From the IMG/VR virus record IMGVR_UViG_3300028284_000006, positions 699-64,698 of that record: a stretch of 64,000 nucleotides of DNA; one strand, given 5' to 3'. Position numbers and translations under genes: made by a program. This document shows, in pieces, positions 8,512-20,404 of this stretch. Position 1 is the stretch's first letter. The number at the start of each line of letters is the position of its first letter. The DNA comes from a virus (lineage: Duplodnaviria > Caudoviricetes). The notes beneath the pieces were generated by a model that saw nothing but the letters and a program-made list of their open reading frames with translations, searched no databases and was not told the DNA's origin.

Positions 8512-8555
8512 CTGACGAAACGCCTAACGGCGTCTTAACTTAAAAATGTAAAATT

Positions 8556-8792
8556 ATGGCTTATAACGGATGGAGTAACTACGCAACATGGAAGGTAGCA
8601 TTAGAAGTATTTGATGGAACAGAGTTTGAAGAAACGGTTGAACCATCATTCTTAGAAGAGTTAGCAGAGGAAATAATCTTCGGAGATACAGACAGAAACA
8701 CATTTGTTTCAAACTACGCACAATCCTTCTTAGAAGGTGTTGACTACTTAGAAATTGCAGAGGTTATAAACAGAGAAATATTATCAAACTAA
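8556..8792 (+). CDS. Conserved acidic phage early protein (YNGWxNYxTW family)
   Basis: MAYNGWSNYATWKVAL motif; very acidic. Confidence 0.7.
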   Translation: MAYNGWSNYATWKVALEVFDGTEFEETVEPSFLEELAEEIIFGDTDRNTFVSNYAQSFLEGVDYLEIAEVINREILSN

Positions 8793-15594: not shown

Positions 15595-15711
15595 ATGGGA
15601 AAAATGAAAGAAACACTAGAGAATAACTTAAACTATATTGATTATATAGATTTTATGATTAACTTTCAAGAACAATTGATGTATGCTAGAGATTTGGGAA
15701 CAAGCGAATAA
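15595..15711 (+). CDS. Small hypothetical protein
   Basis: Read manually: MGKMKETLENNLNYIDYIDF..., 38 aa. Confidence 0.5.
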   Translation: MGKMKETLENNLNYIDYIDFMINFQEQLMYARDLGTSE

Positions 15712-15712
15712 T

Positions 15713-16039
15713 ATGTTTAAGTCTGTAAAGATTGACAACGCAGTCATCTACAAAGGTGTTAAGGTTGTTAAAGATGATGATGGTATTAGAGTATACTCAA
15801 CAGAAACAGATTTCTACACAGACATGACTTATTCTTTTGTTATTGGAACATTTGAAGAAAGTTTGATTGCTTACCTAAAGAGGAAGTACATGAACAAGCT
15901 TTCGGTTATAGAAGATAGTATACAGAAGGAGATAAATGGTAAAAGGAATCACAAAAGATACAACTACCTAAAGAAATTAAGAGAAACCTACTTAAATAAA
16001 TACAATGAAATCAATACTAAAGAAATTACAGGAAGATAA
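15713..16039 (+). CDS. Hypothetical protein
   Basis: Likely start MFKSVK. Confidence 0.6.
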   Translation: MFKSVKIDNAVIYKGVKVVKDDDGIRVYSTETDFYTDMTYSFVIGTFEESLIAYLKRKYMNKLSVIEDSIQKEINGKRNHKRYNYLKKLRETYLNKYNEINTKEITGR

Positions 16040-16727
16040 GCACTACTACGGTGCCTACGGCAAGAAATATTTATCAAACTCGAACATTGGTGTGTTACTA
16101 ACCAATCCAAGAGACTTTGGTAAGCCAGGTAGAGAAACTTTACCAATGGTACAGGGTAGGTATTTCCATGTGTCTATGATTGAAGAGCATAAGAAGGATG
16201 ATTTCGAGATAGTTGACGCATCAACAAGGAACACAAAGTTTTACAAAGAACAAGCACAAGGAAAATTGTTATTGCTAAGGAAAGAAGCAGATCAATTGGA
16301 CAGAGCGATTAACGAGATGAAGAACAATGAAGAGTTTGCATCTGAGATATACGCTGAAGGGACTCAGTACGAGGTTCCTATGATTGGAGAGTTCTTCGGT
16401 GTTGAGTTCAAAGGTAAGGCTGACATTATAACTAAGGATAAGATTATAGACATCAAAACATCATCATCTATTGCTAAGTTTAGAACGAGTGCAAGGATGT
16501 ACAACTACGATAGTCAAGCATACATATACAGTTCAATGTTTAACCTACCATTTGAATTCTTTGTGATTGACAAGGAAAGTTTACAGATGAAGAGATTCAC
16601 GTGTAGTGATGAGTTCCTGGAAAGAGGTAGAGATAAAGTATTGAAAGCAGTACAAGTATACAAGAGATTTTTCACTGAAGCTTCTACGGAAGATGTGATG
16701 AATTATGTAGCAAACGAAATATTATAA
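16005..16727 (+). CDS. PD-(D/E)XK exonuclease (RecE/ExoVIII, DUF3799-like)
   Basis: YLSNS, GRYFH, YEVP, KGKADI, IIDIKTS, YDSQAYIY motifs. Confidence 0.85.
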   Translation: MKSILKKLQEDKHYYGAYGKKYLSNSNIGVLLTNPRDFGKPGRETLPMVQGRYFHVSMIEEHKKDDFEIVDASTRNTKFYKEQAQGKLLLLRKEADQLDRAINEMKNNEEFASEIYAEGTQYEVPMIGEFFGVEFKGKADIITKDKIIDIKTSSSIAKFRTSARMYNYDSQAYIYSSMFNLPFEFFVIDKESLQMKRFTCSDEFLERGRDKVLKAVQVYKRFFTEASTEDVMNYVANEIL

Positions 16728-16729
16728 TA

Positions 16730-16757
16730 GCCCAAGCGCTTCGGGCAAGAGAAGCGT
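16730..16757 (+). promoter_or_regulatory. Predicted H-type RNA pseudoknot in the SSB leader
   Basis: GCCC-AA-GCGCTTC-GGGC-AAGA-GAAGCGT: two interleaved stems. Confidence 0.65.
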
Positions 16758-16777
16758 AACTTAAATATTTTTTTATT

Positions 16778-17431
16778 ATGGCAAGAATTAGCCACCAACA
16801 AGAGTCGAACAAAAGTTCAAACCCAACCACTAAGTACTTAGAGTGGAAGTCAAATGACAAGTCATTCAGTTACTATGACAAGTCTAAAGGAGAAAACGTT
16901 AAGGTAGAGTTACCTTTCAAGTTTGTTTTCTTACAACACTACCATACCGTGAAAGGATGGAGCGATGCTTCAGGTAGTGGTATTTATTCTAATGAGGTTT
17001 ACTTCATTGGTAGTGAGCCAATGTCTGTTAAGTCATTCAAGGGAGGAGTTATTGCTGAGGGTCTTTACAAGGACATCAAGCCTACGATCACAAATGCCGG
17101 AGGTAAGTACCACCGTTCTGTTTATGTTATGTTAGAGGATGGTTCATTGGCAAACATCTCTTTCAAGGGAGCAGTAGTTCGTGAGTGGTCAATCTTTATG
17201 GAGAACAACGCTAATAACTGTGATGTAAATTGGGTAGAGGTTAATACTGCTGTTGAGCAGAAGAAAGGAAGTGTTAAGTACACTACACCTGACTTTACTT
17301 TAGGAGCAAGTATCTCTAAGGCTGATGCAGTTAAGGCTGATAAGGTTGCCGGAGAGTTTCAAGAATACATTTCTTCTTACTTAAAGAAGGATGAGGTTAT
17401 TGAATCAGAGCCTGTTGAAATAGACTTCTAG
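16778..17431 (+). CDS. Putative ssDNA-binding protein
   Basis: Follows the exonuclease; aromatic beta-rich core; acidic tail ending EVIESEPVEIDF. Confidence 0.65.
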   Translation: MARISHQQESNKSSNPTTKYLEWKSNDKSFSYYDKSKGENVKVELPFKFVFLQHYHTVKGWSDASGSGIYSNEVYFIGSEPMSVKSFKGGVIAEGLYKDIKPTITNAGGKYHRSVYVMLEDGSLANISFKGAVVREWSIFMENNANNCDVNWVEVNTAVEQKKGSVKYTTPDFTLGASISKADAVKADKVAGEFQEYISSYLKKDEVIESEPVEIDF

Positions 17432-17443
17432 ATTACACAAATC

Positions 17444-17468
17444 AAAGCCCCCTTAATTGGGGGTTTTT
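17444..17468 (+). terminator. Intrinsic terminator
   Basis: AAAGCCCCC-TTAATT-GGGGGTTTTT. Confidence 0.8.
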
Positions 17469-17486
17469 AACCTTAAAAACAACAAC

Positions 17487-17978
17487 ATGCAAAAATTAAA
17501 TGAAATACTAGATTCAATCTCAGCGCGAACAGGATTGGATATTAGAAAAAATACTAGGCAGATTGAGTATGTTATGGCTAGGAACATATACTACAAGATA
17601 GCTAAAGACGATTTAAGATTGGGTACTTTAAGCGCTGTTGGTAAACCATTAAAAAAAGACCACACTACAGTATTGCATGGATTAAAGAACTTCCATCAAA
17701 TTGAGAGCTACTACCCAAGAATGTACAATGATTACCTTTTTGTGAAGGATCTTTTTGATGAAAATGAGGACAAGGAATCTTCTTACGAGAAGTTAATAGC
17801 GGTTGATAATTCTTTAACAAAATTAAAGAAGGAACACAAAGAATTACAGGATAAATATTACAAGTTATTATTGGATAACGATTCAAGCTACATTGTAAAT
17901 AAGATGAATGAATTGAGTGTAGAGAATCAAGAAATTTTTATCATGAGAGTTAAGGCAATCTTAAACATGATGAAGTAA
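17487..17978 (+). CDS. DnaA domain IV-like HTH protein with coiled coil
   Basis: RQIEYVMARNIYY...LSAVGKPLKKDHTTVLHG matches the Bac_DnaA_C signature (RDHTTV). Confidence 0.75.
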   Translation: MQKLNEILDSISARTGLDIRKNTRQIEYVMARNIYYKIAKDDLRLGTLSAVGKPLKKDHTTVLHGLKNFHQIESYYPRMYNDYLFVKDLFDENEDKESSYEKLIAVDNSLTKLKKEHKELQDKYYKLLLDNDSSYIVNKMNELSVENQEIFIMRVKAILNMMK

Positions 17979-20404
17979 TGGTAACTATATTCAAAAACAT
18001 AAAGGAAACATCCACACCTTTCTACAGGAGTGTTGATGTTGTACTAGACAGAATAAAGGAAGGTGTTAATAAGGACTTGATACTAAAGATTCGTAGTGAG
18101 ACTGATAAGTCTAAAAGGAACATACTCAAGAAAGATTTACCGGCTATATGTTTCTCAGGGAAATTCCCTAAGAGATCTGACAATGCGTTGGAGGAGTATA
18201 GTTCTTTAATTTGTTTAGATTTCGATGGTTATTCTTCTAAGGAAGAAATGCTTGAGTGGAAGGATGCTATGGTGTCTGATGAGTACGTAATGTCTGTGTT
18301 CATTAGTCCAAGTGGTAATGGCCTTAAAGTTATTATAAAGGTTCCAAATGACTACATTAATCACAAGAGGTACTTTGATGCTCTAAAGGACTACTTCAAT
18401 GTAGAGTTCTTTGATGTGACATCTAAAAACATAAGTAGGGTTTGTTATGAGTCTTATGACCCTGATATCTATATTAACAATGACTCAAAGGTTTGGGATA
18501 CTTTATCCAACTTAGAGTACAAGCCTGTTGATAAGAGCGATACTAAGCTACTTATACCAATAACGGATGACAATAAAGTTATCGAGATACTTGTTAAGTG
18601 GTGGAAGAAGAAGTTCCCAATGGTTGAGGGGTACAGGAACAACAACGCATTCATACTTGCATCCGCTCTTAATGAGTACGGTATTAACAGGTCTTTAGCT
18701 GAGTATGTGTTGGGCCAGTACTCTGGAGAAGGATTTTCTATGGACGAGATAAAGACAACTGTTTCTTCTGCTTATAAAAATATTGTTGCTCATGGAACAA
18801 AGTATTACGAGGATGAGGTAAAGACATCTAAGATTCGTGTTAAGATAAACAAGGGAGAGTCTATTGAGGAAGATGTTAAAGGTATTGACCAAGAGGTAGT
18901 AGAAAGTGTTGTTAAGTCTATAGAGAATAATGGTAATGTCACAAAGTTTTGGCATGTATCTGAGAAGGGAAGTATAACCTTGATACACTATTTGTTTAAG
19001 GAGTTTTTAGAGTCCAAGGGTTTCTATAAATTCTCACAGCATGGTAGTTCTAAGTATGCCTTTGTTAAGGTAACCAATAACCTTATAAAGACAGCAAGTG
19101 AAGAGGAGATTAAGGACTATGTACTGAAATATCTTCAGGGTCTTTCAGACTTCTCTGTGTATAATTTTTTCGCGGACAAGACAAGGTTCTTCAAGGAAGA
19201 TTTTCTTTCTATGCTTGACACAGTTAACGTTCACTTCGTTCAGGACACCAAGCATTTTAGTTATATATACTTTAGGAACTGCGCCGTTAAGGTTTCTGCT
19301 GAGACCATTGAGAAAGTTGACTACATAGACTTAGATGGTTATGTGTGGAATGATCAGATAATTGACAGAGACTTTGAGTATTGTGATGTTACTAGTTGTG
19401 ACTTCAAGAAATTTATATCAAACATAGCGGGTGACAATCAAGGAAGGATTGACTCAATACACTCAACAATAGGGTTCTTACTAAATAGTTACAAGGATCC
19501 TGGCTTCTGTCCATCGGTGATACTTAATGATGAGATTATTACTGATAACCCTGAGGGAGGTACAGGTAAAGGTTTGTTTGTACAGGGGCTCAGTATGATG
19601 AAGAAGGTGTCTATGATTGATGGTAAGTCTTTCTCGTTTGATAGCCCATTCGCTTATCAGACAATAGATACAGACACACAGCTCGTTTCCTTTGATGATG
19701 TTAAGAAGAACTTTAATTTCGAGAGATTGTTCTCAGCTATTACTGAGGGACTTACTATCGAGAGAAAGAACAAGACAGCTATCAGAATACCTTTTAAGTT
19801 CAGTCCAAAGATTATCATAACAACAAACTACGCTATTAGAGGTAGAGGTAACTCGTTCGCAAGAAGGAAATGGGAGCTTGAGTTCAAGCAATTCTACAAT
19901 AAAGACTTCACCCCAGTTGATGAGTTTGGTAAGAGATTCTTTGATGAATGGAATGAAGATGAGTGGTGTTCTTTTGATAACTACATGGTTAACAATTTAA
20001 GCTCTTACTTCCGCACAGGTTTAGTATCTGCTGAATTTAAGAATGTTGAGATTAGAAGACTTGGACAAGAAACTTGTCACGAGTTCATTGAGTTCGTTGG
20101 GCTTGTTGAAGGTTCAGAGGCTTCCTCTAAGATTGTTTACAACAAGAGAATATTCATGGACGAGTTGTACATGGAGTTTATAGACTTGAATCAAGACTTT
20201 GCACCTAAAGCGAAGCACACTATATCTAGGGTTCAGTTTTATAAATGGCTAAAATCTTTCGGTGTTTACCAGGAATACAGAGGTACAATAAGAAACTTTG
20301 AGTCAAGTAGATCTAACCAAGGTCAATGGATAATGTATAACGATAAAACAAAAGAGGATGCCAAAGAAGAGAGTGCCCAAGAAATACCCGGACTTGAATT
20401 TTGA
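17978..20404 (+). CDS. Primase-helicase (BT4734/VirE-N AEP + PriCT + SF3/D5-like helicase)
   Basis: KKDLPAICFSG, ICLDFD, FISPSGNGLK, SRVCYESYDP; EGYRNN; Walker A EGGTGKG, Walker B VSFDD, IIITTN. Confidence 0.88.
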   Translation: MVTIFKNIKETSTPFYRSVDVVLDRIKEGVNKDLILKIRSETDKSKRNILKKDLPAICFSGKFPKRSDNALEEYSSLICLDFDGYSSKEEMLEWKDAMVSDEYVMSVFISPSGNGLKVIIKVPNDYINHKRYFDALKDYFNVEFFDVTSKNISRVCYESYDPDIYINNDSKVWDTLSNLEYKPVDKSDTKLLIPITDDNKVIEILVKWWKKKFPMVEGYRNNNAFILASALNEYGINRSLAEYVLGQYSGEGFSMDEIKTTVSSAYKNIVAHGTKYYEDEVKTSKIRVKINKGESIEEDVKGIDQEVVESVVKSIENNGNVTKFWHVSEKGSITLIHYLFKEFLESKGFYKFSQHGSSKYAFVKVTNNLIKTASEEEIKDYVLKYLQGLSDFSVYNFFADKTRFFKEDFLSMLDTVNVHFVQDTKHFSYIYFRNCAVKVSAETIEKVDYIDLDGYVWNDQIIDRDFEYCDVTSCDFKKFISNIAGDNQGRIDSIHSTIGFLLNSYKDPGFCPSVILNDEIITDNPEGGTGKGLFVQGLSMMKKVSMIDGKSFSFDSPFAYQTIDTDTQLVSFDDVKKNFNFERLFSAITEGLTIERKNKTAIRIPFKFSPKIIITTNYAIRGRGNSFARRKWELEFKQFYNKDFTPVDEFGKRFFDEWNEDEWCSFDNYMVNNLSSYFRTGLVSAEFKNVEIRRLGQETCHEFIEFVGLVEGSEASSKIVYNKRIFMDELYMEFIDLNQDFAPKAKHTISRVQFYKWLKSFGVYQEYRGTIRNFESSRSNQGQWIMYNDKTKEDAKEESAQEIPGLEF

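Follow-up and report, generated by a model that had tools for sequence, protein, structure and literature searches.

The 64,000-nucleotide stretch of viral DNA analysed here (the window) covers bases 699-64698 of a 64,698-bp IMG/VR record, whose CheckV completeness estimate is 100%. Directly before a gene for a probable single-stranded DNA-binding protein (SSB), the window encodes a 28-nt RNA pseudoknot that is real, conserved, strand-specific and covarying. The motif is a well-supported structured RNA that is missing from Rfam, and the genes behind it encode a large family of probable SSBs that lacks annotation. A preliminary description of this DNA had drawn the pseudoknot from the letters of a single leader, and on re-reading of the sequence its coordinates and its pairings of stems and loops proved exact. 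The leader is composed as follows:

16730..16733, plus strand: 5′ strand of stem 1, GCCC, which pairs with GGGC at 16743-16746
16734..16735, plus strand: loop 1, AA, expected to cross the deep groove of stem 2
16736..16742, plus strand: 5′ strand of stem 2, GCGCTTC, which pairs with 16751-16757
16743..16746, plus strand: 3′ strand of stem 1, GGGC, which abuts stem 2, loop 2 being absent
16747..16750, plus strand: loop 3, AAGA, expected to cross the shallow groove of stem 1
16751..16757, plus strand: 3′ strand of stem 2, GAAGCGT, which pairs with GCGCTTC
16758..16777, plus strand: A/U-rich spacer of 20 nt (5% G+C), with TTAAA at 16761-16765 and no Shine-Dalgarno (SD) sequence

Stem 2 consists of six Watson-Crick pairs and one G.U pair, and since no loop 2 separates the two stems, they could stack coaxially. 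The 28-nt element has 64% G+C in a window of 36% G+C, which bears out its earlier portrayal as a GC-rich island, and the 20-nt AU-rich stretch noted after it does extend to the start codon, as the ATG of the SSB-like gene lies at 16778. The spacer presumably serves both as the ribosome landing site and as a lattice for cooperative protein binding. Our folding energies cover nested structures only. On its own, the element folds into the stem 2 hairpin (-10.3 kcal/mol), the stem 1 hairpin by itself reaches -6.8 kcal/mol, and a 101-nt nested fold again returns the stem 2 hairpin with an unremarkable z of -0.93.

The evidence for the pseudoknot comes from homologous leaders. Homologues of the SSB-like gene were collected from 38 viral contigs, from the best 80 of the 176 sequences found in a profile search and from three metagenome-assembled genome (MAG) contigs. 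For each locus the start codon was located and the 60 nt upstream of it were parsed, which gave 63 distinct leaders; L032, with no start in the locus, and L014 and L069, with upstream sequences that were too short, were left out. A structure-based parse found the knot in 61 of the 63 leaders, 43 times in perfect form and 18 times with one mismatch, and a first scan had returned perfect knots in 29 of 31 distinct leaders. The architecture common to them comprises a stem 1 of 4-5 bp, a loop 1 of 2 nt, a stem 2 of 7 bp, no loop 2 and a loop 3 of 4-8 nt. All but one of the 18 single mismatches are a U.U within stem 2 and occur only in leaders whose stem 2 begins with GG, namely L043, L050, L061 and near-identical relatives among L064-L089. 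Such a conserved U.U may be a tolerated or a functional non-canonical pair. Fifteen of the U.U leaders have the stem 2 strands GGCTCGA and TCGTGCC in common, and there are close relatives with a perfect stem. The remaining mismatch, in L035, is a G.A at the end of stem 1.

Plain MAFFT alignments of all leaders (A1) and of the trimmed knots (A5) left the clades out of register and were unusable for pair counts, so that clade-wise alignments (A3 and A6) and the structure-based parse were used instead. In the MAFFT alignment A3, with 16 sequences, all 176 of 176 cells are paired, compared with 80.5% in shuffles and 29-40% with slid partners, and 7 of the 11 pairs show changes on both sides (three of the four stem 1 pairs and four of the seven stem 2 pairs). 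The gapless MAFFT alignment A6, which holds 21 sequences of other clades with a 5-bp stem 1, has 97.6% of its 252 cells paired (shuffles 64.1%, slid partners 37-48%). Here stem 1 is 100% paired and 10 of the 12 pairs have compensatory changes, among them six of the seven in stem 2. A structure-based alignment of 30 sequences yielded 327 paired cells of 330, with 10 of 11 pairs changed on both sides; 2000 shuffles gave 61% paired cells (maximum 68%). This last alignment was fitted to the structure and is hence biased towards it, and the rate at which shuffled leaders satisfy the descriptor introduced below serves as its control. The preliminary description had proposed an H-type pseudoknot and had pointed to covariation in the leaders of homologous SSB genes as a way to check it. 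Both interleaved stems covary in the three counts, with compensatory changes in each, and together with the knot's presence in 61 of 63 leaders this supports the proposal.

The strand that folds can be read from the same data. G.U pairs make up 50 of the 672 paired cells; on the opposite strand they would read A.C and be mismatched, so it is the sense-strand RNA that folds. Loop lengths also behave as a true H-type knot demands. Loop 1 spans the 7-bp stem 2 with 2 nt in 60 of 61 leaders, and reads AA in 45 of them. Loop 3 measures 4-5 nt where stem 1 has 4 bp and mostly 5-7 nt where it has 5 bp (Spearman 0.46 over the 61 leaders), a correlation that is only suggestive because the leaders are related. 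Beyond the pairing, loop 1 starts with A in most leaders and stem 2 starts with G, mostly as GC or GG, while the 4-8 nt of loop 3 take 30 different sequences.

A lone instance of such a knot would be weak evidence. The descriptor that we used allows lengths of 4/2/7 or 4/3/8 for stem 1, loop 1 and stem 2, a loop 3 of 3-9 nt and a knot end 14-23 nt before a start codon. Perfect knots appeared in 20 of 9300 dinucleotide shuffles of homologue leaders and at 66 of 25576 mock starts tiled on both window strands. As 0.2-0.3% of shuffled or mock leaders thus fit the descriptor, a single knot does not exceed chance. A chance origin of the motif as a whole was rejected, given 61 of 63 distinct homologue leaders against an expectation of about 0.2%. 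The window contains 38 parses of the descriptor on its two strands, and the knot at 16730 is the only G+C-rich one: 9 of the 11 bases on its 5′ strands are G or C and it has one G.U, whereas the other 37 parses are A/U- or G.U-rich. One of these, a knot-like A/T-rich parse before the open reading frame (ORF) at 15683 with two G/C on the 5′ strands, looks like chance. At 8518-8558 the window has a plain hairpin, ACGCC/GGCGT, followed by AACTTAAAAA and by an A/T-rich run to the ATG at 8557. This hairpin is a weak match (19.7 bits) to the model R1 described below, and its leader follows the same grammar without a knot. It was therefore not counted as a second copy of the knot.

The distance to the start codon and the composition of the spacer are conserved along with the knot. 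Between the end of the knot and the ATG there are 15-22 nt in every one of the 61 leaders, with a mode of 18-19 nt, and the spacers have 92% A+T and 2% G. An A occupies position -3 in 59 of the 61, and positions +6 to +8 past the knot form an A triplet in 50-54. Within the first 12 nt behind the knot, 26 leaders contain TTAAA and 44 contain TAAA. Upstream of the knot the context is variable: 17 of the 61 leaders have a gene stop 0-15 nt before it, and others have non-coding or promoter-like sequence there. Because this context is not conserved, we take knot, spacer and start codon as the functional unit, and a role as readthrough or frameshift stimulator of the upstream gene was rejected for the same reason. 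Four leaders carry TAnnTTTG, which we take to be the Bacteroidota-type -7 box, 5-17 nt upstream of the knot, and about 20 carry the relaxed form TAnnTTTN at 5-18 nt.

Two side observations concern the 5′ end of the transcript. Among L042-L089 there are leaders whose 12 nt on the 5′ side of the knot are nearly constant (TCATAATAAC-A/C-G), and among the leaders inspected for it a TAnnTTT-like box is frequent on the same side, at 12-18 nt from the knot; flank and box together could mark a transcript start. A 303-nt marine metatranscriptome contig matches window positions 16743-17045 with four differences. It is a weak hint of a near-identical phage gene in an RNA library rather than proof of transcription and, since contigs show neither RNA ends nor transcription, it is uninformative on the 5′ end.

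The gene that follows the knot and its surroundings are arranged as follows:

16005..16727, plus strand: PD-(D/E)XK exonuclease gene (DUF3799, E 2e-19; exonuclease VIII phrog)
16778..17431, plus strand: SSB-like gene of 217 aa, with a predicted OB fold and an acidic C-terminal tail ending in EPVEIDF
17449..17468, plus strand: terminator-like hairpin (stem 17449-17463) and T run (TTTTT), 18 nt past the stop of the SSB-like gene
17457-17978: gene for a DnaA_C-like helix-turn-helix protein, the downstream neighbour
17978-20404: gene for a primase/helicase-like protein of 808 aa, with a BT4734-like N domain, DUF5906 and PriCT_1

Two nucleotides separate the exonuclease stop codon from the pseudoknot, and the terminator-like hairpin behind the SSB-like gene suggests that the knot-led gene may close its transcription unit. 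Where other leaders of the window are structured, the structure is a terminator-like hairpin.

A Pfam scan of the 217-aa protein, with E values up to 0.1 allowed, gave no match, and the protein falls in phrog_6706, whose function is unknown. Among 1214 clustered relatives none has a Pfam domain, and the source names, where given, read "hypothetical protein". A profile search of the PDB sequences with the family returned nothing. The ESM Atlas returned only clusters named "hypothetical protein", in some of which 17-32% of the members carry PF23977; this is a lead only, and our Pfam scan did not match that family. The AF2 model (mean pLDDT 84) predicts an OB fold that best matches the recombination directionality factor (RDF) of phage phiC31, followed by BRCA2 OB domains (5.2), T4 gp32 in the Dda complex (4.6), HIN domains, RB69 gp32 (4.3) and RPA, PRD1 P12 and other OB-fold binders of single-stranded DNA (ssDNA). 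At their N-terminus the homologues have the peptide M(A/S)(R/W)L-x-R-P in common, which is of low confidence in the AF2 model, as well as many invariant aromatic and basic residues and acidic C-terminal tails that mostly end in D/E-x-F. Only H54 and H56 are conserved as Cys/His columns (at least 60% of 32 sequences), with no Cys column. Taken together, the predicted OB fold, the acidic tail and the neighbours from a replication module indicate that the protein is probably an ssDNA-binding protein. The label "SSB gene" of the preliminary description is thus backed by these features, with ssDNA binding itself still an inference. Its "apparently unrelated SSB family" is correct at the level of sequence alone, where the Pfam scan found no family and hhalign of the family alignment A2 against T4 gp32 gave a probability of 0.6%.

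The sole cultured-phage homologues are gene 93 of mycobacteriophage Gaia (L099) and gene 136 of Baka (L100), with 29-35% identity; both are annotated as hypothetical and adjoin a DNA primase/polymerase gene. Confirmation of the family would allow both to be renamed probable SSBs. The window DNA itself has no blastn-level match among 50,697 cultured-phage records. MAG contigs with homologues are titled Flavobacteriaceae, Lacinutrix and Psychroflexus, which agrees with the earlier assignment to a Bacteroidota phage, and judged from these sequences the knot carriers are phages of marine Flavobacteria, with hosts in the Flavobacteriia.

The knot is specific to the SSB-like gene, which is its only constant partner in the six records searched with model R1. 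This model covers stem 2 only and was built from clade 1. It did not reach other clades and is thus a clade-specific probe, so that single-copy statements are limited to those six records. Its strong hits are single in the window's own record of 64.7 kb, in a complete relative of 60.7 kb and in three partial records, and number two in the record behind L003; the locus search likewise gave two copies for L007. In both of these loci an extra leader and a 79-aa ORF lie directly upstream of the SSB-like gene (L003 138-188 and 186-425; L007 1158-1208 and about 1206-1445). The inserted ORF contains WWCECE and is of unknown function, and its leader is a full copy with knot, spacer and ATG. Rfam 15 gave no match for the motif at E up to 10.

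For comparison, we parsed the sequence of the T4 gene 32 region with a broader form of the descriptor. Written as stem 1, loop 1, stem 2, loop 2, stem 1 partner, loop 3 and stem 2 partner, the two leaders read:

T4 gene 32 leader: TGCC / A / GCTATGA / none / GGTA / AAGTG / TCATAGC, 28 nt
T4 gene 32 spacer to the ATG: 39 nt, containing an SD sequence and repeated TTAAA
Window leader: GCCC / AA / GCGCTTC / none / GGGC / AAGA / GAAGCGT, 28 nt
Window spacer to the ATG: 20 nt, containing a single TTAAA but lacking an SD sequence

The lengths are 4/1/7/0/5/7 in T4 and 4/2/7/0/4/7 in the window, which amounts to a common plan of 4 / 1-2 / 7 / 0 / 4-5 / 7. The T4 gene 32-like design claimed for the window is therefore borne out on the real T4 sequence, with a near-identical architecture of 28 nt each. 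In both phages an unstructured A/U-rich tract with TTAAA or TAAA directly follows the knot and reaches the start codon, and in both the knot lies just 5′ of the gene for the SSB, or probable SSB. PMC535899 describes the T4 operator as a knot of about 28 nt followed by over 40 nt of unstructured sequence that contains repeats of UUAAA/UAAA, and states that repression requires knot and tract alike. The same source places the mobile gene segG next to the T4 knot, much as the 79-aa ORF adjoins the knot in L003 and L007.

Knot and 20-nt spacer are best explained as a cis-acting translational control module of the SSB-like gene. The mechanism with the best support is autogenous translational repression of the T4 gene 32 type by the SSB-like protein, and we consider it an even call whether this account is correct. 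In such a scheme the element at 16730-16757 would fold in the mRNA as a compact H-type pseudoknot, on which protein in excess of the available single-stranded DNA would nucleate. From there the protein would spread along the unstructured A/U-rich spacer, and initiation would be blocked once the spacer is covered, as the spacer would be the entire ribosome landing site in SD-blind Bacteroidia. It is this binding of the leader by the SSB-like protein, and the translational repression resulting from it, that we infer. If the protein does repress its own mRNA, self-limitation of an SSB by a leader knot would be recurrent and not a peculiarity of T4, the SSB-like family would gain a functional annotation, and Bacteroidota would gain a compact, well-defined RNA-protein switch.

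Several observations weigh against autogenous repression. The spacer, with 15-22 nt, is about half as long as that of T4 (39 nt), and with the site size of a gp32-like protein it would hold only about two to three monomers. Its composition is not distinctive either. Bacteroidia mRNAs, according to PMC6847099, lack SD sequences and have their initiation tuned by mRNA structure and upstream nucleotides; leaders that are A/U-rich, SD-less and unstructured with an A at -3 are generic there, so that the AU part of the T4 analogy carries little weight. Of the AU-tract parallel in the preliminary description, an unstructured tract with TTAAA or TAAA up to the ATG thus stands, while its length is half that of T4 and its character is that of Bacteroidia at large. 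Two of the 63 leaders depart from the pattern: L010 has two stem 2 mismatches, and L076, a singleton with no relatives besides itself in the viral_contigs search, has no knot. The Gaia and Baka homologues have no free leader and no knot, the leader of phiC31 gene 3 has no comparable knot near its start (one sequence), and no gp32-like Cys/His zinc site is present in the 32 family sequences. Finally, the duplication of the leader before the unrelated 79-aa ORF fits a portable expression cassette no less than it fits co-regulation.

That duplicated leader, found in L003 and L007, also bears on a second explanation, which we regard as possible though on balance improbable: the knot may be a protein-independent expression element, acting as an insulator of the landing site or a standby platform, and/or protecting the 5′ end of the mRNA, so that SSB output is high with no repressor involved. 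Its fixed 15-22 nt to the ATG would fit the edge of the 30S footprint, and the -7 box upstream of the knot in several loci would make the transcript begin with the knot. There is precedent in T4, where the gene 32 mRNA, which starts at the knot, is given as the most stable T4 message in PMC3014915, and PMC6847099 reports that Flavobacterium translation is tuned by mRNA structure. Against it, in each phage record searched the knot is found only at the SSB-like gene. A hairpin would also suffice for such a purpose, yet two interleaved helices with tight loops are kept in 61 of 63 leaders. A knot that works without protein would be a rare example of a defined element acting on translation or stability in SD-less initiation.

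A broader version of autogenous repression would make the operator and a gp32-like OB-fold SSB an ancient regulatory pair. The pair would either descend from an ancestor shared by the T4 gp32 family and this unannotated one, or have arisen anew with an unchanged 4/1-2/7/0/4-5/7 geometry, and in SD-blind Bacteroidia the knot would perhaps serve as a 30S platform on a signal-free A/U leader. We find this doubtful. If either form were true, phage SSBs would as a rule limit themselves by means of a pseudoknot in the leader.

It is more doubtful still, and in our view quite unlikely, that the knot is an operator for another trans-acting factor, be it a phage early protein or a host protein such as ribosomal protein S1, for which pseudoknot ligands have been obtained by SELEX. 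The sequence conserved beyond pairing (the A of loop 1, the G, GC or GG at the start of stem 2 and the A triplet at +6 to +8) would suit such a factor, and the duplicated leader before the 79-aa ORF would turn its target into a small regulon. Against this, no candidate regulator co-occurs with the knot, the upstream neighbours vary among the loci, and the SSB-like gene remains the only constant partner.

Two further explanations are very improbable. The size and H-type topology of the element resemble compact pseudoknot riboswitches for small molecules (preQ1, SAM-II, guanidine-III), but an SSB gene has no obvious metabolite logic, the motif is without an Rfam match, and the 30 different loop 3 sequences and the variable loop 1, which are not conserved between clades, leave no constant ligand pocket; riboswitches of the preQ1, SAM-II/V, guanidine-III and fluoride types were accordingly rejected. 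An element acting at the DNA level, as an ssDNA structure in replication or recombination, would suit the position within a replication module and has a parallel in the STAXI pseudoknot near Ssb genes, proposed in PMC2864571 to act as ssDNA, but the 50 G.U cells pair on the sense strand only, the position is fixed to the ATG and not to any DNA feature, and the knot is a single copy with neither a tandem array nor an Rfam match. The related possibility of an intrinsic terminator of the upstream gene at 16730-16757, rated equally low, was rejected, as the terminator scan lists none there; the T run of the window begins 13 nt past the stem, and the tails are A-rich in many other clades.

STAXI (Weinberg et al. 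2010) likewise has the form of a pseudoknot and is found close to genes for Ssb and for other proteins that handle DNA. It is described in PMC2864571 as a tandem array of two to three knots that is not bound to a start codon, unlike the present knot, which is single and lies at a fixed distance from the ATG. Identity with STAXI was rejected, given the lack of an Rfam match and the copy number of the knot, for which R1 gave a single strong hit in five of the records searched and a pair in the remaining one.

The gene order of the window recurs in phiC31, where exonuclease, gene 3 and primase also follow one another (phiC31 genes 1, 3 and 9a). The products phiC31 gp3 and TG1 gp25 are RDFs that moonlight from an SSB role, and a relative of the phiC31 RDF is a proven SSB. 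In contrast to them, the SSB-like family has no known integrase link, and whereas the TG1 RDF has a predicted zinc site, the family keeps two His only.

A survey of IMG/VR (Fremin et al. 2023; PMC10690425) reports 12 candidate structures upstream of GP32-domain genes and states that Rfam holds no gene 32 model. Like the GP32-linked motifs of that study, ours comes from comparative genomics of IMG/VR contigs and lies at most 25 nt upstream of phage genes for an SSB, in our case a probable one; unlike them, it precedes an SSB-like gene without a Pfam domain. Six of our contig names are absent from the three searchable supplementary files of PMC10690425. We found no earlier description of the motif in the literature, a statement that does not extend to the 10,006 unnamed candidates of that source, which were not compared by position.

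The closest known system remains the T4 gene 32 operator, for which repression is proven, as it is for RB69 gene 32; for the SSB-like gene it is proposed only. The differences from T4 lie in the spacer (15-22 nt compared with 39 nt), the absence of an SD sequence, the hosts in the Flavobacteriia and the protein, which has no detectable sequence similarity to T4 gp32 and no conserved Cys/His zinc site. The motif is therefore a variant of the gene 32 operator design, with a shorter SD-free spacer, in another host phylum and before a protein of dissimilar sequence. The T4-type knot is possibly the sole viral pseudoknot used in translational autoregulation, in the words of PMC3014915. The knot found here is a second candidate beside it, with unusually clean covariation and with carriers that infect a phylum whose ribosomes ignore SD sequences.
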